This document shows positions 18,444 through 25,197 of a DNA stretch of 64,000 nucleotides, piece by piece. The position numbers and the translations under genes are program-made. The stretch's first letter is position 1, and each line of letters opens with the position of its first letter. Source of the stretch: Candidatus Krumholzibacteriota bacterium. Lineage in GTDB: Bacteria > Krumholzibacteriota > Krumholzibacteriia > JAJRXK01. The stretch lies in NCBI GenBank assembly GCA_963727455.1, contig CAVSGG010000009.1, forward strand, positions 192,001-256,000, given 5' to 3'. The notes under the pieces are model-generated. The model saw only the letters and a program-made list of their open reading frames with translations, searched no databases and was not told where the DNA came from.

Positions 18444-19520
18444 TCAGCTGAAGAGGCCTTCGCGCGCGCCGCACTGCGCTCCCAGAAGCTTGAGGGCCTG
18501 CACGGCGCGTCGTACCGAATTTCCATCCACCGGCCCCAAGATCTCGCGTGAAGCGGCCTTGGGCGCGCGCATCATCTCGATCGGTTCACAGCGCAGCCAA
18601 GCGCGCGCGCGGGCCAGTTGGTCCCTGTCCTCCACCCACTCGAAAGCTCGCAGGGCCCGGGCCAGCGGCGTCTCTCTCTCGCTGAAGCTCCCTCTGGGAT
18701 GGCACGATCCCAGACCAAGAGCTGGCCGGCCCAGAGCGGCCGCCCGCAAGAGTGTCGTACCTGCTTCAGCCAGAACGAGATCGCTGGCGGCGAGAAGCTC
18801 GGCCTCGGGAATTTTCCGATCGGCGAGGTAGATCCCGGGGCCCGCGAGGGCTGCCCCGAAGGGACGTGGATCGAGCAGACGCCGCGCGGTGGAGCAGCTC
18901 AGGACCAGATCCGCCTCGACCCTGAGGGAGGCCAGGGCCTGGGTCATGGCTCGGATGCCCTCGCTTGCGGCTTCGGCTCGCAGCAAGATCAGGGGACGGC
19001 AGCTGTCGGCGGAGAGTCCCAGTGCGTAGCGGGCGCGACTGCGCGCGCCCGGCTGCAGGGCGGTGTCCAGCGCAGGATCGCCGATGACGACCTTCGCGCG
19101 GGAGGGGTCCTCGTCGCACAGCGAGGGTCCGGATACGAGAGTGAGGGTGGCGGACGGGATTCTCCCGGGAATGCCGGGATCGCGCCACTCCACCAGGGCG
19201 CCTCGCTCCCGCAGCCAGGCGCGGAGACTGGACTCGGGCACTTCTCCTTGACTCACCAGGAGGTCGAATTCGCCTTGGGGTTCGCTCAGCGGCTCGAGTC
19301 CGTGTTCGAAGGCGCTGCGCAGCACTTCCGCGCGCGGATTCAGCTCTCGGGAAGGCCAGCGGCCCTTGGCGACGAGAATCCTCGAGCCGGGGGTTCGGCG
19401 CAGCACGGCTTCGAAAGATTCGAGTTGTTCGGGAAGAGTGACCAGAAAGCCGGTACGCATGCGGATCGCGAACGCGCCCGTCCCCACGACGGGACCGCGC
19501 TCATCCGGTGCTGCTTTCAA
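18444..19520 (-). CDS. Putative GT-B fold protein (CDP-glycerol glycerophosphotransferase-like)
   Basis: VIGDPALD, ELLAASDLVL, DGNSVRRAV; glycan-cluster context. Confidence 0.5.
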   Translation of the reverse strand: MKAAPDERGPVVGTGAFAIRMRTGFLVTLPEQLESFEAVLRRTPGSRILVAKGRWPSRELNPRAEVLRSAFEHGLEPLSEPQGEFDLLVSQGEVPESSLRAWLRERGALVEWRDPGIPGRIPSATLTLVSGPSLCDEDPSRAKVVIGDPALDTALQPGARSRARYALGLSADSCRPLILLRAEAASEGIRAMTQALASLRVEADLVLSCSTARRLLDPRPFGAALAGPGIYLADRKIPEAELLAASDLVLAEAGTTLLRAAALGRPALGLGSCHPRGSFSERETPLARALRAFEWVEDRDQLARARAWLRCEPIEMMRAPKAASREILGPVDGNSVRRAVQALKLLGAQCGAREGLFS

Positions 19521-19551
19521 GAATGGTGCCGTCTGGATCCCAGCCGGGAAA

Positions 19552-20037
19552 CTAGCCGTGGTACAAGACGCGCGCGGGGACTCCCGCGACCACTTCCTTG
19601 GCCGCCACGTCCCGCGTGACCACGGCGCCGGCTCCGATCACCGCGCCTTTGCCCACGTGGATGCCGCCCATGATGATGGCACCCGAACCGATGGAAACCT
19701 GATCGCCGATCTCGGTGGGCACGAAGCGATCCGCCCAGTCCTTCTCCTGTTCGGGTTTCCCACTGGGAGTCACCGCGCGCGGATGGAGATCGTTGATGAA
19801 AATGACGCCGTGACCGACGAAGCAACCGTCTCCGATGTGAACCCCTTCACAGATGAAGGTGTGAGAGCTGATCTTGCAGTAGCGTCCGATGACCGCGCCC
19901 TTCTGGATTTCCACGAAGGTGCCGATGCGGGATTCGTCTCCGATCTTGCAGCCGTAGAGATTCACGAAGCGATAGATCTTCACGTCCTTACCCAAGACGA
20001 CATCGTCTGCAATGCTCACGAATTCCAAGATCGTCAC
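19552..20037 (-). CDS. Hexapeptide-repeat sugar N-acetyltransferase (WbpD/WxcM-like)
   Basis: CKISSHTFICEGVHIGD, FIND, IGAGAVVTRDV, GVPAR. Confidence 0.9.
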   Translation of the reverse strand: MTILEFVSIADDVVLGKDVKIYRFVNLYGCKIGDESRIGTFVEIQKGAVIGRYCKISSHTFICEGVHIGDGCFVGHGVIFINDLHPRAVTPSGKPEQEKDWADRFVPTEIGDQVSIGSGAIIMGGIHVGKGAVIGAGAVVTRDVAAKEVVAGVPARVLYHG

Positions 20038-20145
20038 CTTCTCTCGAGTTTGCTCTCATCCCAGCGCCCTTCGCGCCATCTTCTTCGTGATTCAAACCGC
20101 GTGCTGCTTCGAGAATAAACGGCTGGCCGCGGGGAAGCGAGTAGC

Positions 20146-20178
20146 AAAAAAAAGCGAGGTGAGCCTCGCTCACCTCGC
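20146..20178 (-). terminator. Intrinsic terminator
   Basis: Perfect 11-bp stem GCGAGGTGAGC/GCTCACCTCGC (20154-20178) followed by U8 on the minus strand (A8 at 20146-20153). Confidence 0.85.
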
Positions 20179-20612
20179 CTCAGAGAAAATTCAGTTCACT
20201 TGGAAGAACACCCCCCTGCCCGTTCATGCTCAAGTTGCGCTACCGGTGGGAGCCGATGCTCGATGAAGCGCACAGGGGGGTGAAGAAGGTGCGCGGGCCG
20301 TACCCAACTTGGAGACCTTTGATCATGAGGATTGGTCCCAGTACCTCATGAGGAATGCCAAGTGCATGCAGCGTGAATGAGAATCCTCGCCACGCCCTGC
20401 GAGTGCATTCTCGCTGAGATGAGCTGACGGCGCCCGTGTGTCAGCCTCATCTCCAATCGCCACAAAGCGGTCCGACCCGCACGTGGTCGTGAAAAATCTG
20501 GACCGCAGTTTCCGCAGGCGGCCGGGAGCGGTCGTCCCGGGGAACGGTTTTGCACCGCTTCCGTTACCAAGAGAATCCAATCTCCAGGGCGGCGCAATGA
20601 CTTCTCTAGAAT
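20146..20612 (-). ncRNA. Candidate large structured ncRNA or leader RNA (unassigned)
   Basis: No convincing ORF; a series of inverted repeats; minus-strand TAGAAT at 20619-20624 upstream and a terminator at the 3' end. Confidence 0.45.
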
Positions 20613-20668
20613 GGAATGATTCTACCCATTCGAGTTCGTAAAGACCCGAACAGCCTTTCGTAGCAGGC

Positions 20669-23470
20669 TCAACGCGGCAGACTGGGGGCCAGAAGAACCG
20701 CGTTCAACAGGAGACGCGTGGTTACCGGCCAGATGCCCCGGAAGCTGGGATCTTCGGCGAAAAGGACGACCCTGCCCTTCTCGTGCTCCTCACAGATGAG
20801 GTAGGGCGCCCCCGCAAGGGCCTGTACGGTCTCCGGCCAGGCGAAACCGGCGATCAGGGGCTCGTGTTCTGCGTAGTTGACCACCGTTTGCTCCTGCTCT
20901 CCCGCGCGCAGCTGGCGTCCCTGCTGCACGAGCGCACAGATGGGCCTGCTCAAGCCGTAGCACAGGAAGTGGTAGGGAGCCCTCTCCAGGCGGAAGATGG
21001 CGCCCGGGATGGAAGGAGGCGAATCGGAGGGCTTGCTGGCGGCATGGCGCGCCTCGGCGGAGCCCTCGACGGCGGGTGGAGAACTTGCGTCCTCTTCGTT
21101 CGGATAGGGACTAGTTTCCGCTTCGGGCTCCGCTTCCAAGGCCGGCGCGGACTCGTCCCCCTCTGGCTGGGCCCCATCTTCCAGCGAGGCGGACAACCAT
21201 CCCGGCAGGTCCATGAGGGCCTCACTGGCCCTGCCCAGCGCCACCAGGGTCCCTCCCTGGTCCACCCAGCTGCGCAGATCCGGCAAGAGCGGAGCGTGCT
21301 TCTGGAGGTCCGGAATGACGATCACGTCCACCTCACGCAGGCGCAGCTCATCCAGTTGGTCCAGGAGCACCGTCGAGCAGTCGACTCCCATGTGCTCCTG
21401 CAGGACCCACAGCACACTGCCCAGGCTGGTCGGGCGCACTCCCGGTCCACCGGCGACCACGATGCGCGGCTGACGCAAGCGCAGCACGGCATCGCTTCCC
21501 AGGGATGGTCCCTCATCACTCCATGCGCTGCTGACGGGAACGACTTCAACCCCCGTGTCGCGCGCGACTCTTTCGAGCAAGGAATCCAGCGCGAGGGTGG
21601 AGTCCTGGACCGAACGCTTGAGCACCAGGCTACCCGCGGGAAAGCTCTCTTCGCTCCGCTTGAATGCTTCGCGGGCGAGGTAGACTCTCGCGCCCTCGCG
21701 CCAGAGCGCGGCCAGCGCGGCACAACTCGCGTTGTCTCGATCGGGAATCAGGTAGCCGTAGGACGCTTTTGCGGGATCGAGCGCCGGGCTCGACGGTATC
21801 TTCTCTGTCTTCACGCGAACGCTGGCGACTTCCAGATTTTTCGCGCTGTAGTAGGTGGTCAAGCCAAAGGCGAGCGGGAGACTCCACGCCGTCACGTCGT
21901 AGAAACGATCGCGAAGTCCCGCGCGGTGGCGTTCGGTCTCATCTTTCAGAAAGCCCTCATCCATGGGCTGATCCCAGCCCAAGAGATTTTGCAGAAGCGG
22001 ATAGGCTGCCTGCCTGAGCACGATACGGTAGCTTCCCGCGGGGAACTCGTGCTTGTTTTCCTCGCCGCTCTCCTGAGTGGAAACTCTGGCCTCGAAGCCA
22101 CGCTCGCTTCGCAGGACCTGCACCCCTTGCATGCTCAGAAGGCGCGCCAGGCGCCGCGCCTCCGCCGGAGCCTGGCCGAGGTCGAAGAGAATCTCCTTCG
22201 CATCGGCCTTGTCCGCCCTGCGCAGGGCCTCGTCGCGGAAGCGGCGCGAATACTGGAGCAGTTCCCTGCTCTTGGCGGCGCTCGTCCGGCAGCTCGTCAG
22301 CGCCGCCAAAAAATGATGCTGAACCGCATCGCGGTAGCTGCGGATGGCTCCGCTGCCATCCTCGATCCGCAGTCCGTCCGAGCTACCCTGTTCGAAAGTC
22401 ATCCCGATTGCGCCCTGTAGACTGGGCCAGGAATCTCCGTAACCGGGGTAGAAGAGATCGAAGTGCTCGCGCACGAAGTAGTCCACTCCAGCCGCATCAA
22501 ATGCCTTCGCATTCGCTTTCCCGTAGAGTTCGAGCCAGGATTGCAGCTCCTGGGGAAGCAACGGATTGTGCGGCAAGGCCGAGGGCGGAAAAAAGTAGGT
22601 GGAGGACGATCGCATTTCGTGCAAATCCAAAAAGACCTGGGGGCGCCAGCTTAGGAAGGCGGCAACCCTCGCCCTGGTCTCGGGCTGCGTGAGAAAGGCC
22701 CAGTCGCGGTTGAGATCGAAGAAGTTGTGGTTGTAACGGCCAGTTGGCCAGAGCTGCGTGTGTTCGATGGCCTCGGGATGGGGATCGGGACCGCCGACCT
22801 GACGCGTGAACGATCGCAGGTGCTGCAAGAAGCGACGTCTTCCATCGGGGTTCTGGCAGAGGTCGATGAGAACCACGAGGTGTTCGAGCAGCTCCTGGGT
22901 CTGTTCGCTACGATCGGCCGCCAAGTGGTAAGCCAAGAACATGCCCGCGTCGCAGCCGCTGGCCTCGTCCCCGTGAATTCCGCAAGCAACCCACACCGCG
23001 GGCAAAGGCGCTTGCGCGCCGCTCGTCTGCGCCTTGACGCTCGCGGAGAAATCCAGTGCGGTCCGCGACTGCAACAGTCCCTCTTGATCCTTCGAAGCGC
23101 TGATCGCCAACAGGAGCAGAGGATCGCCTTCGACGCTGCGGCCGATCTCCTGCACACTCACCCGATCGCTCGCCTCGGCCAAGAGCCGCGCGTAGGCGAG
23201 AAGCTGCTGGACCGAGGCCGGCCTCTCCCCCAGCGGGTGCCCCAGGAGCGAAGCCGGCGTGGGGACGGCCGGATCGTAGTCCGCGTCCCGCACCCACTGG
23301 AGGGCGGGATCATCCCCGGTGGTAGCCGCTGCCGCTTCCGGGGCGCACAGTACGCCGATCAAGAGAAAGAGTCCGAGCAAGCCCAGGGAGGCCGGGCCGA
23401 GAATCGCTCTGCATTTCCAGAAGGAAGAACGCACCGCCACCTCTCCGCGTTCGAGCGCCTCAAACTCCAC
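20669..23470 (-). CDS. M14 zinc carboxypeptidase, exported, with C-terminal GATase-like domain
   Basis: IHGDE, NPDG, DLNRD, DLHEM, MTFEQ. Confidence 0.9.
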   Translation of the reverse strand: MEFEALERGEVAVRSSFWKCRAILGPASLGLLGLFLLIGVLCAPEAAAATTGDDPALQWVRDADYDPAVPTPASLLGHPLGERPASVQQLLAYARLLAEASDRVSVQEIGRSVEGDPLLLLAISASKDQEGLLQSRTALDFSASVKAQTSGAQAPLPAVWVACGIHGDEASGCDAGMFLAYHLAADRSEQTQELLEHLVVLIDLCQNPDGRRRFLQHLRSFTRQVGGPDPHPEAIEHTQLWPTGRYNHNFFDLNRDWAFLTQPETRARVAAFLSWRPQVFLDLHEMRSSSTYFFPPSALPHNPLLPQELQSWLELYGKANAKAFDAAGVDYFVREHFDLFYPGYGDSWPSLQGAIGMTFEQGSSDGLRIEDGSGAIRSYRDAVQHHFLAALTSCRTSAAKSRELLQYSRRFRDEALRRADKADAKEILFDLGQAPAEARRLARLLSMQGVQVLRSERGFEARVSTQESGEENKHEFPAGSYRIVLRQAAYPLLQNLLGWDQPMDEGFLKDETERHRAGLRDRFYDVTAWSLPLAFGLTTYYSAKNLEVASVRVKTEKIPSSPALDPAKASYGYLIPDRDNASCAALAALWREGARVYLAREAFKRSEESFPAGSLVLKRSVQDSTLALDSLLERVARDTGVEVVPVSSAWSDEGPSLGSDAVLRLRQPRIVVAGGPGVRPTSLGSVLWVLQEHMGVDCSTVLLDQLDELRLREVDVIVIPDLQKHAPLLPDLRSWVDQGGTLVALGRASEALMDLPGWLSASLEDGAQPEGDESAPALEAEPEAETSPYPNEEDASSPPAVEGSAEARHAASKPSDSPPSIPGAIFRLERAPYHFLCYGLSRPICALVQQGRQLRAGEQEQTVVNYAEHEPLIAGFAWPETVQALAGAPYLICEEHEKGRVVLFAEDPSFRGIWPVTTRLLLNAVLLAPSLPR

Positions 23471-24590
23471 GATCTCGGCCCGCGGCCCAGCTGCTCACGG
23501 CGCGAATCACTCGCTCCTGATCGCTGGACTTCATCCGCGCCGAGAAGGGCAAGGACACGACTCGCTGACACAGGGATTCCGTAACTGGAGTCGCGAGGGT
23601 CCGCGGGCAACGGTCTTTGAAAGCAGCCTGGATGTGCAAGGGATGAGGATAGTGCACCACGGTGGGGATGCCGCCTGCGTCGAGCTCCTGGATGAAACCG
23701 GCGCGCTGCTCGGCGCCTGCGAGCTGGATGGTGAACTGCGCCCAGGAGGAGCGGCAACCCTCGCGCGTTCGGGGGACTTCCACCGCTCCGTCCAGCGCTT
23801 CGCAGTAACGCTCCGCGATACGTTGGCGCATCTGGAGTTCATCGGGGAAGGCGCGGGCACGAACCAAGAGCGCGGCGCACTGCAGAGCATCGAGACGCGC
23901 GTTGGTGCCCAGTTCCTGGTGGAGGTGGTGCCCCACCTCCCCGTGCTGACGCAGTCGACGCAAAGTGTCGGCGAGTTCGCCATCCTCACAAAAGATCATC
24001 CCGCCGTCGCCCAAACCGCCCAGCGGTTTCGCCGGATAGAACGAGGTAAAAGCGGCGCGTCCGAAGGCGCCGCTCATACGGGTGGGGCTCTTCGCGCCGA
24101 GGCTCTGGCAGGCATCCTCCAGCAGCGCGATCCCGCGTTCCTCACAGAGTGCCTCCAATTCGGCCAGCCGCGCCGGATGCCCGAAGAGGCTCACCACCAC
24201 GACCGCTTTCACTCTGTCCGTGAGCGCCGCGCGGACCGCCTGCGGATCCATGGTGAAGGTCTCGGGCTCGACGTCCACGAAAACCGGGCTCGCTCCCGCG
24301 AGCAGCACCGCCTCGGCCGTGGCGGCGAAAGTGAAATCGGGCACCAGCACCTCGTCGCCGCGGCCGATTCCCAGAGCCATCAGTAGGAGTTGTTCGGCCA
24401 CGGTGCCCGAAGTGCAGGCCACGGCGTGCTTCACGCCAACGAACGCAGCCAGAGTTTCTTCGAGCTGCGCTACTTTGGCGCCCCCGATGAAGCGTCCGGA
24501 GTCCAGGACCTCCAGCAGAGCTTGGCGCAGTTCCTCTTTCTGCGGCGCCAGCATCGCCTGAAGATCCAGAAAGGGCAGTCGTGGTTCCAT
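23460..24590 (-). CDS. DegT/DnrJ/EryC1/StrS aminotransferase
   Basis: EDACQSLG, SFYPAKPLGGLGDGG, GTNARLD. Confidence 0.93.
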   Translation of the reverse strand: MEPRLPFLDLQAMLAPQKEELRQALLEVLDSGRFIGGAKVAQLEETLAAFVGVKHAVACTSGTVAEQLLLMALGIGRGDEVLVPDFTFAATAEAVLLAGASPVFVDVEPETFTMDPQAVRAALTDRVKAVVVVSLFGHPARLAELEALCEERGIALLEDACQSLGAKSPTRMSGAFGRAAFTSFYPAKPLGGLGDGGMIFCEDGELADTLRRLRQHGEVGHHLHQELGTNARLDALQCAALLVRARAFPDELQMRQRIAERYCEALDGAVEVPRTREGCRSSWAQFTIQLAGAEQRAGFIQELDAGGIPTVVHYPHPLHIQAAFKDRCPRTLATPVTESLCQRVVSLPFSARMKSSDQERVIRAVSSWAAGRDRGV

Positions 24591-24603
24591 GAACTTCGTA
24601 CTC

Positions 24604-25197
24604 TCAGTCTCGATTGCGTCCGGGTTGCCAGAGCACGTCCTTTTCGCCCTTGCCGTTGGCCATCCGCGAGGCAACGAAGAGATAATCGCTGAGCCGGTTC
24701 AGATACTTCAGAGCATGGGGATTGATCTGCTCCTTGCGGCTCAACGCGACCGTGTGCCTTTCGGCGCGCCGGCAGATGGTGCGCGCCAGATGGAGTCGCT
24801 GACTCAGAGCGGAACCACCGGGAAGCACGAAACTGTTCAGAGGAGAGAGTTCTTCGTTGGCGGCATCGATCAACTTCTCCAGGCGCTGCACCTGTTTTGC
24901 GACGATGCGCAGCGCCTCGTCCTCCGTGGAATCCGTTTCCTTCTTCTGAGTTCTTTGCGGGGTGGAGAGGTCGGCTCCGAGATCGAAAAGATCGTGCTGG
25001 ATGCCACACAGAGCATCGCGCGTGTCCGCGTCAGCGCTCTCGCAGGCGCCGATGCAGATGCCGATGGTGGCGTTCAGCTCGTCCACGCAACCGTAGGCCG
25101 CGATGCGTACGTCATCCTTGAAGACACGGCTGCCGTCGCTGAGCCCGGTCGATCCATCGTCGCCGCTACGCGTGTAGATTCGATTCAGTTTGACCAT
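24604..25197 (-). CDS. pduO: ATP:cob(I)alamin adenosyltransferase, PduO type
   Basis: IYTRSGDDGST, YGCVDELN, RTICRRAER, YLNRLSDYLF. Confidence 0.95.
   Translation of the reverse strand: MVKLNRIYTRSGDDGSTGLSDGSRVFKDDVRIAAYGCVDELNATIGICIGACESADADTRDALCGIQHDLFDLGADLSTPQRTQKKETDSTEDEALRIVAKQVQRLEKLIDAANEELSPLNSFVLPGGSALSQRLHLARTICRRAERHTVALSRKEQINPHALKYLNRLSDYLFVASRMANGKGEKDVLWQPGRNRD

Follow-up and report, generated by a model that had tools for sequence, protein, structure and literature searches.

A conserved structured RNA of about 470 nucleotides, probably a stand-alone noncoding RNA, in one family of Candidatus Krumholzibacteriota

Introduction

Few structured RNAs of bacteria reach several hundred nucleotides, and each of the studied classes, such as RNase P RNA, transfer-messenger RNA (tmRNA), OLE, GOLLD and ROOL, has proved surprising in what it does or builds. 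In this study, we examined a gap between protein-coding genes in a window of 64,000 nucleotides (nt), which is the whole stretch analyzed here (contig CAVSGG010000009.1, positions 192,001 to 256,000; G000:C9:192001-256000, where G000 is the source assembly GCA_963727455.1 of a Candidatus Krumholzibacteriota bacterium, 88.85% complete with a stated contamination of 6.68%). The gap spans 631 bp at 20038-20668 and lies between an open reading frame (ORF) of 933 aa at 20669..23470(-) and another of 161 aa at 19552..20037(-). A first-pass annotation of the sequence had described it as 630 bp without a credible ORF, and indeed only six mechanical ORFs of 41-85 aa each touch the gap and no conserved reading frame was found in it. 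We consider it likely, with a rough probability of 0.7, that the gap encodes a stand-alone structured noncoding RNA (ncRNA) of about 470 nt on the minus strand, belonging to an uncatalogued family. The same annotation had proposed that a structured ncRNA of about 460 nt, not described before, lies at this place, and this proposal was supported by the folding z-score, the covarying homologues, the lack of an Rfam match and contigs from RNA libraries.

The closest described systems are the large structured RNAs OLE, GOLLD and ROOL, together with HEARO and raiA. The RNA resembles them in having several hundred nucleotides with many covarying helices, in being confined to one lineage with no fixed downstream gene, and in having conserved terminal loops, one of which is palindromic. 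Palindromic loops of OLE and GOLLD make symmetric intermolecular kissing contacts, according to a report on these RNAs (PMC12286853). The host taxon, Krumholzibacteriota, distinguishes the RNA from OLE, GOLLD and ROOL. It is also smaller than these three, and the membrane-protein or phage contexts in which they occur were not seen at its loci. No match to the Rfam models of OLE, GOLLD, ROOL, HEARO or raiA was obtained even at E-values up to 10, the models of the first three being, we presume, among those in the database. The RNA is a new class inside the general kind of large, lineage-restricted structured bacterial RNAs and a member of no Rfam family.

Membership in known families was judged with the 4227 covariance models of Rfam 15, for which a score at or above the gathering score of the family was required. 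The cmscan search recommended in the first-pass annotation gave no match at this level in the whole window, nor in eight loci of distant relatives, in agreement with the earlier statement that no motif of RNase P RNA, tmRNA or signal recognition particle (SRP) RNA was visible. When three regions were searched at permissive E-values (up to 10), only matches far below the thresholds were detected, such as P31 (16.9 bits against a gathering score of 40), snoU82P (16.1 against 42), GlsR4 (15.2 against 70) and MIR7991 (21.5 against 58), along with RsmV in the locus L013 of a relative (15.1 bits against 100, E 0.038). The SRP RNA (RF00169) and tmRNA (RF00023) of the source assembly are located elsewhere, at G000:C5:156930-157028 (78.4 bits) and G000:C18:13942-14297 (166.6 bits), respectively, and neither model hit the window. 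RNase P RNA (RF00010) gave no hit anywhere in G000, an assembly that is 88.85% complete and in which its gene was presumably missed by assembly or binning. The standard RNase P RNA was present in 30/30 relatives at 273-334 bits, including all nine other family members found to have the new RNA, which ruled out that the latter is a disguised RNase P RNA.

6S RNA is likewise a stable, highly paired bacterial RNA that has a long rod-like hairpin and is encoded by a terminator-bearing gene of its own. The earlier suggestion that the 3' rod is loosely 6S-like did not hold, as the 6S model (RF00013) had no hit in the window and the true 6S gene, scoring 60.2 bits and thus over the cut-off, was found at G000:C5:583654-583833. 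By inspection, the rod accounts for just the 3' quarter of what is a branched RNA, and it shows no central bubble flanked by long closing stems. We found nothing in the published literature that joins Krumholzibacteriota with noncoding RNA, although the supplementary motif tables of ncRNA surveys could still include the RNA, and nothing that joins CYTH, an RNA motif and a riboswitch. The accessible portions of the ncRNA-discovery literature contained no description of this RNA, and the string of its loop turned up, in the text available, only in unrelated papers.

Results

A conserved and covarying fold read from the minus strand

The full-length RNA is divided as follows.

20146..20612, minus strand: predicted transcript (about 467 nt), with its 5' end placed by the -10 box and its 3' end by the U-tail of the terminator

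20601..20606, minus strand: 5' strand (GAGAAG) of the outer helix around the 5' domain and core, pairing with 20283-20288 (CTTCTT)

20483..20600, minus strand: 5' domain of five short hairpins, in the genus-level form only (helices 3-8, 75-100% of cells paired, four compensatory pairs)

20291..20482, minus strand: core domain of 192 nt with helices P1-P5, which defines the family and on which the covariance models R1 and R2 were built

20209..20282, minus strand: 3' rod, a long hairpin with the conserved apex GGCTCCCACCGGTAGC (helices 17 and 18)

A DNA search of 41 related genomes identified full-length homologues with identities of 84%, 74% and 73% in three relatives of the same genus, and a copy with 90% identity was found on contig C8 of the same assembly. 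These homologues were aligned with the window copy on contig C9 to give a genus-level alignment of five sequences (A3), for which RNAalifold predicted 146 consensus pairs. In this alignment, 93.8% of the cells were paired, while the value was only 41-46% when the 3' partners were slid by 1-3 columns, and 24 of the 146 pairs had changes on both sides, compared to 3-4 in the slid controls. None of 500 shuffles reached the observed value on four of five measures, and the fifth measure, further pair types, was not significant (66/500). The homologues and covariation that had been named as a check on the first proposal were thus present, with 24 compensatory pairs in A3 and, as described below, 57 of 65 in the core. 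The 3' rod was among the well-supported parts (24 pairs in helices 17 and 18, four of them compensatory, 98-100% of cells paired). With five sequences, the weakest parts were the outer helix (helix 2 of the RNAalifold prediction; 80% of cells paired, one compensatory pair), hairpin 5 (75%) and a supposed hairpin across the TAGAAT box, which showed no covariation. The last hairpin is probably absent as RNA, if transcription begins after the box.

The folding energy of the stretch was also significant in comparison with shuffled sequences. The minus strand of 20146-20624 folded at -205.6 kcal/mol against a shuffle mean of -175 kcal/mol (standard deviation 6.97), corresponding to a z-score of -4.39, and the plus strand gave a z-score of -5.26; in both cases, none of 100 shuffles was as good. 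As both strands folded better than the shuffles, the folding energy cannot select the strand. The strand was instead indicated by the kinds of pairs observed, since G-U/U-G exceeded A-C/C-A in paired cells at a ratio of 66 to 13 in the full-length set (A3) and 93 to 25 in the core set (A6). In addition, at the two sites where the terminator of the C8 copy is substituted, the minus strand has G-U pairs and the plus strand would have A-C mismatches. These results indicated that the RNA is read from the minus strand.

All the inverted repeats named in the first-pass annotation as lying back to back are present in the sequence, and seven of them, including the terminator, fit the fold supported by the evolutionary comparison. 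They include CCGGGA/TCCCGG (20522-20540), P3 with GAGATGAG-CTGAC/GTCAG-CTCATCTC (20416-20453), P4 with GAGAAT-CTCGC/GCGAG-ATTCTC (20379-20412), the tip of P5 with TCATGAGG/CCTCATGA, and the rod CACCCCCCTG/CAGGGGGGTG with the inner TTCAT/ATGAA (20209-20282). Two others were unsupported by the comparison. The GGACC half of GCGGTCC/GGACCGC (20467-20506) goes into the covarying helix P1 (20469-20482 with 20291-20304) instead, and the AACGG/CCGTT helix is not retained in the C8 copy, the helix predicted at this place being paired in only 75% of the cells.

No sign of protein coding was detected in the five homologues. The variable columns were distributed over the three codon phases at 63/64/70, gaps of 1, 2, 3, 4 and 14 nt were present with frequent indels of 1-4 nt, and the longest open frames differed in both frame and position. 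A protein gene or small ORF was rejected owing to the lack of codon periodicity and of a conserved frame and to indels that were not confined to multiples of three. The locus is a conserved, covarying and non-coding fold of the minus strand with a covarying terminator.

The comparison of C9 with C8 gave identities of 97.3% for the 3' rod, 94.3% for the core and 86.9% for the 5' domain, the least conserved part of the RNA, along with 78.0% for the stretch of the peptidase coding sequence, 55% for the spacer and 93.8% for the stretch of the acetyltransferase coding sequence. The RNA is under strong constraint in this genus. As for the origin of the two copies, contigs C9:1-229000 and C8:260690-498684 are collinear over approximately 225 kb with about 82-95%, mostly about 85%, identity, and the DNA search of the genome found only these two syntenic copies. 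Either G000 combines two related organisms in a mixed bin or it contains a very large duplication; the C8 copy is most likely an orthologue from a co-binned relative or a part of such a duplication, and the numbers of RNA copies per genome in G000 are to be read in this light. A dispersed repeat or mobile element was rejected, as the second copy lies within the collinear sequence of about 225 kb and hits on viral contigs failed to match the model.

The core domain and its three invariant loops

In the core, P1 closes a junction with P2 and P5, and P2 closes the hairpins P3 and P4. The alignment of the core (A6) comprised 24 sequences, 17 of which were distinct, and was fitted to the covariance model. 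For the 17 distinct sequences, 57 of the 65 pairs were compensatory and 91.7% of the cells were paired, compared to 35-42% when the partners were slid, and 0/500 shuffles reached the observed covariation values. When the same 17 sequences were aligned by MAFFT, blind to structure, P1, P3, P4 and the tip of P5 were recovered with compensatory changes in 26 of 33 pairs.

The stems and junction strands of the core vary freely among the homologues, while the three terminal hairpin loops listed below are fixed. This invariance rests on 14 matches found by the model only (13 and, in addition, L075), the other members having been collected by a pattern that required the three loops.

20429..20439, minus strand: loop L3, ACACGGGCGCC, having the 6-nt palindrome GGCGCC in an 11-nt loop (CGGGCGCCG in 14/14 model-only matches)

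20391..20398, minus strand: loop L4, AGGGCGTG, or AGGGCGUG as RNA (GGGCGTGG in 12/14 model-only matches)

20331..20343, minus strand: loop L5, TACTGGGACCAAT (GGGACC in 14/14 model-only matches)

CACG of L3 is complementary to CGUG of L4. The L4 motif was replaced in L017 and L075; the latter was altered in both partners of the L3-L4 contact and the former kept L3 without L4, so that the evidence for the contact was mixed.

The loops show a G-rich motif, GGGCG twice and GGGAC once, similar to that of the CsrB/Rsm sponges (Rfam clan CL00106). The difference is that GGA is present only in L5 (GGGACC) among the three invariant loops, as L3 and L4 carry GGGCG. In a family search, CsrA (PF02599) was detected in 5/5 genomes of the other three genera and in 0/5 genomes of this genus, including G000. 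Membership in the CsrB/Rsm group was rejected, since the RNA is kept in the genus lacking CsrA and the RsmV score was far under the threshold.

Distribution of the RNA

The model R1, built on the 192-nt core, gave 13 full-length matches in 9/10 genomes of the taxonomic family, the distant ones scoring 37-66 bits. The tenth genome, G006, contained a 45-bit copy that was seen only when the filters were turned off at the locus beside its peptidase gene. The RNA is therefore carried by 10/10 genomes of one Krumholzibacteriota family. Whole-genome searches with the models in class and phylum samples gave 0/141 each (largely the same genomes), and 0/30 in a further search, with none outside the family. 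As all the whole-genome searches missed the copy of G006, this absence is soft and divergent members could be missed.

A pattern scan of a genome collection gave 13 stretches, eight of which matched R1, and the titles of the entries were Candidatus Krumholzibacteriota, Krumholzibacteriia or metagenome-assembled genomes (MAGs) of an 'uncultured bacterium'. Four Streptomyces stretches and one from a 'Proteobacteria' MAG did not match R1 and were discarded. The scan of metagenomes gave 15 stretches, 11 of which matched the model; L046, L051, L052 and L055 were pattern hits without a model match. None of six hits on viral contigs matched the model. These scans demanded all three loop motifs and were blind to members without them. 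The loci beside peptidase orthologues in other families, 21 in total, gave no model hit better than E 0.075; L066-L072 and L079 were excluded from this synteny scan, being known matches already. The genes downstream of those orthologues were different ones, including genes for an extracytoplasmic function (ECF) sigma factor, an LVIVD-repeat protein and a radical-SAM protein. Within the searches made, the RNA family is confined to one family of Candidatus Krumholzibacteriota.

Boundaries of the transcript and traces in RNA libraries

20619..20624, minus strand: -10-like box TAGAAT inside the conserved motif GGTAGAAT (comparison of five genus-level homologues)

20144..20180, minus strand: intrinsic terminator comprising the stem-loop 20152-20180 and the U-tail (terminator scan and covariation)

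When the five genus-level homologues were aligned in the RNA sense, the conserved block started exactly at GGTAGAAT and ended at the terminator stem in all of them. The minus-strand TAGAAT was present at 20619-20624 as first annotated, and GGTAGAA was invariant across A3, the sixth base of the hexamer being C in G002 (TAGAAC). The box reads TAGACT or TAGTAT in another genus. The same hexamer precedes the tmRNA gene of G000, as TTGCGC-N16-TAGAAT. Judging from the sequence, TAGAAT is a credible -10 element and a promoter of its own is plausible.

The terminator stem with U-tail, also noticed in the first pass, was detected by the terminator scan at 20181..20151(-) as 14 pairs, eight of them G-C, with a loop of 3 followed by a T run. 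Its helix 19 covaries among the five homologues (13 pairs, four with compensatory change, 98.5% of cells paired). The tail is U-rich in 4/5 homologues, that of G004 being just GUCGUU.

Nine RNA-library runs contained small shares (0.04-0.09) of the words of the RNA stretch, and contigs were mapped for four of the nine, from four studies. The contigs (110-220 nt, 90-95% alike, from relatives) covered only 20237-20476, and besides, two matched the hexapeptide gene weakly at 19903-19977, running into unlike sequence. As the contigs stem from relatives at 90-95% likeness, the uncovered parts 20146-20236 and 20477-20640 are uninformative. Metatranscriptome coverage starting near 20612 and ending near 20146 had been proposed as a check; cover of the RNA was found, and neither end was shown by the contigs. 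The cover fits an abundant and stable RNA as a hint, assembled contigs of relatives being unable to show strand, ends or level.

Two architectures and their gene context

The RNA occurs in two forms, type A, to which the window copy belongs, and type B, a compact paralog with the same core. The genes flanking the window copy and the paralog of G000 are as follows.

20669..23470, minus strand: M14-peptidase-family gene of 933 aa, upstream of the RNA (Pfam PF00246, E 4e-22)

19552..20037, minus strand: gene for a hexapeptide-repeat sugar acetyltransferase of 161 aa, downstream of the RNA (Pfam Hexapep, E 1.6e-24)

G000:C6:106207-106386, plus strand: type B compact paralog, locus L021, with the same core as type A

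Type A immediately follows the M14-peptidase gene, in the same orientation, in 12/12 distinct loci, counting five from this genus, five from three further genera and two from metagenome contigs. G003 has neither a peptidase match nor a type A RNA. In this genus, type A has the extra 5' domain (20483-20600), the 3' rod (20209-20282) and the terminator. In other genera it is compact, and a CYTH-domain gene follows within about 30-120 nt of the core end at seven loci of other genera and metagenomes; the identity of CYTH was based on Pfam PF01928 (E 6.6e-15) in L013 and on the ExExK start motif in six more loci. The 3' rod is missing from the compact paralog and from the RNAs of other genera. At the genus-level loci, the acetyltransferase gene follows in 4/5, and a convergent gene for dihydrouridine synthase (Dus) is next in G004.

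At this last locus (L012, G004:C1), the convergent Dus ORF (1712-2884 on the minus strand of the locus; Pfam Dus, E 6.4e-65) does not meet a stop codon until about 120 nt inside the RNA, in the stretch of the 3' rod and terminator; this is either a real overlap of convergent genes or a meaningless ORF tail. At another, the metagenome contig L044, a G+C-rich hairpin followed by a U run is located between the RNA core and the CYTH start, so that the compact form of this relative, too, seems from its sequence to have its own terminator.

Type B was found in G000, G001, G003, G004 and metagenome contigs. Its P1 is extended by GAGGGG/CCCCUC and it has a 5' hairpin. The core is preceded, at a distance of about 95 nt or more, by a clear promoter, TGGAAA-N17-TAAACT or TAATCT (TAAACT in L021). 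L021 is flanked by a DUF4252 gene and a convergent 199-aa ORF without a family, with no co-directional downstream gene, and the DNA downstream of the other type B loci looks by eye homologous to that of L021. The 180-nt core of L021 is identical to G003:C13:57563-57742. Type B is not beside a peptidase gene.

The CYTH-domain gene was present in 0/5 genomes of this genus, which nevertheless keep one or two copies of the RNA each, and lay next to the RNA in each of the five genomes of the remaining three genera, with confirmation by Pfam only in G008. This genus seems to have lost both CYTH and CsrA, to have kept the RNA and to have gained a second form of it.

Discussion

In the reading that we prefer, a discrete and stable transcript would start about 7 nt after TAGAAT and end at the U-tail, and the RNA would function by itself rather than as a leader. 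The stand-alone reading is favored by the promoter-driven paralog, which shares the core and has no co-directional downstream gene, and independence from the neighbors by the genus in which CYTH is missing (0/5) and the RNA is kept. The invariant loops would serve as working surfaces or contact sites. L3 (CACG) and L4 (CGUG) could kiss within one molecule, and the palindrome GGCGCC of L3 could pair with L3 of a second molecule to form a symmetric dimer, or could bind a protein. Small-molecule aptamers mostly show conserved junctions and variable terminal loops, the opposite of what was seen here, and a pattern of fixed loops and free junctions suggests that the RNA contacts a macromolecule instead of holding a small ligand in a pocket. 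A more specific proposal, which we offer as speculation with odds well below even, is an ornate non-leader RNA in which the palindromic L3 and the fixed G-rich loops drive self-assembly into dimers or oligomers or dock a lineage-specific protein. Should self-assembly occur, the long form and the compact paralog, sharing L3, could form heterodimers in this genus. If true, this would be a new RNA machine or scaffold, born in one family of an uncultivated phylum beside an M14 peptidase gene and a gene of the CYTH triphosphatase family.

Several observations weigh against this reading. As invariant loops cannot covary, the comparison lends no support to the L3-L4 contact or the L3 dimer, and L017 retains L3 though its L4 is replaced; many members were gathered by the pattern demanding the three loops, which leaves the 14 model-only matches as the basis for their invariance. 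The rows of the RNA libraries, being assembled contigs of relatives, are silent on strand, ends and level, and the ends of the transcript are predicted ones. A promoter scan of 19500-21200 gave no sigma-70-like site, and no -35 box was seen before TAGAAT. The earlier claim of a -10 box belonging to the RNA itself thus stands in part, for the conserved hexamer shared with the tmRNA gene, and the scan did not bear out a promoter around it. Type A is always directly behind the same-strand peptidase gene (12/12 loci) and may be co-transcribed with it and processed. A co-directional gene follows type A in 11/12 loci (acetyltransferase in four, CYTH in seven).

This last arrangement is what a cis-acting leader of the riboswitch or attenuator kind would produce, in which the fold would sense a ligand or factor and set the read-through of the terminator into the next gene, namely CYTH ancestrally and the acetyltransferase operon in this genus. 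Riboswitches and leaders likewise consist of a structured domain followed by an intrinsic terminator and, as in most of the present loci, a co-directional gene. CYTH lies about 30-120 nt from the core end in seven loci, a terminator-like hairpin separates the RNA from CYTH in L044, and the terminator of the window ends 110 nt before the acetyltransferase gene. Nevertheless, we regard a leader as improbable. The downstream genes are functionally unrelated, comprising CYTH in seven loci, a sugar acetyltransferase in four and the convergent Dus in one, with the paralog L021 also facing a convergent ORF, although functionally related downstream genes would be expected for a riboswitch. The paralog has the same core without a co-directional downstream gene, and the genus without CYTH (0/5) has retained the RNA, which is strongly constrained there. 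It is the terminal loops that hold the invariant positions, the junctions being variable, and on inspection the 5' half of the terminator had no alternative partner in the core, nor was a conserved antiterminator seen. In size, the RNA exceeds typical aptamers three- to fourfold. The first-pass annotation had offered an attenuator leader for the acetyltransferase as another option, and this was weakened by CYTH taking its place in other genera, by the convergent Dus in G004 and by the paralog.

It is less probable still, at around one chance in ten, that the RNA is an operon-internal or 3'-untranslated-region (3'-UTR) element of the peptidase mRNA, without its own promoter, that functions as a module of stability, processing or termination or gives rise to a 3'-UTR-derived RNA. 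The constant position directly downstream of the M14-peptidase gene (12/12 type A loci), the lack of a visible terminator between the peptidase stop codon and the RNA, the missing -35 box and the joint absence of the peptidase match and type A RNA in G003 agree with such an origin. The invariance of GGTAGAA in the five homologues, matching the -10 hexamer of the tmRNA gene (TAGAAC in G002), argues against it, as do the paralog, which is clearly promoter-driven and not beside a peptidase gene, and the 21 loci of other families in which no such RNA accompanies the peptidase orthologue. A covarying structure of about 470 nt would also far exceed the need of a stabilizer. This explanation concerns biogenesis and could be compatible with a trans-acting function.

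It is very improbable that the gap lacks an RNA gene of this kind and is occupied by a gene for a small protein, by a decayed pseudogene, by a repeat or mobile element, or by a housekeeping RNA that has diverged: the region is overlapped by ORFs reaching 85 aa, the assembly has a second copy and RNase P RNA was undetected in G000, but there is no codon periodicity or conserved frame, the second copy lies in the collinear block of about 225 kb, the DNA search finds only the two syntenic copies, 0/6 viral-contig hits match the model, 6S RNA, SRP RNA and tmRNA are encoded elsewhere in G000, and RNase P RNA is present in 30/30 relatives.

The stand-alone RNA would be the first lineage-specific ncRNA for Krumholzibacteriota and is a candidate for a new Rfam family. 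The comparative support is unusually clean for so few sequences, with clear boundaries, two natural architectures sharing one core, and invariant loops, one of them palindromic; these features suit the RNA to in vitro study despite its uncultivated host. Its weight is limited by a range of one family and by a role that is a proposal.

Neighboring genes

The acetyltransferase encoded at 19552..20037(-) is NeuD/PglB/VioB-like, with a score under the cut-off of the family. The matches of the C-terminal part of the M14 peptidase in the protein atlas were M14-family or unnamed clusters only. PADLOC assigned none of four neighboring proteins to a defense family.

The spacer at 20038-20145, between the terminator and the acetyltransferase start, shows 55% identity between C9 and C8 with two insertions in C8, and retains one conserved block, CGTTTATTCTCGAAGCA, which may on its sequence be the promoter of the acetyltransferase gene.

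On the other side, an ORF for a DegT/DnrJ/EryC1-type aminotransferase at 23460..24674(-) overlaps the start of the M14-peptidase ORF by 11 bases (23460-23470), and this overlap suggests that the two belong to a single operon. Together with the hexapeptide acetyltransferase, the aminotransferase looks like a pair for sugar modification, with the peptidase gene and the RNA placed between them.

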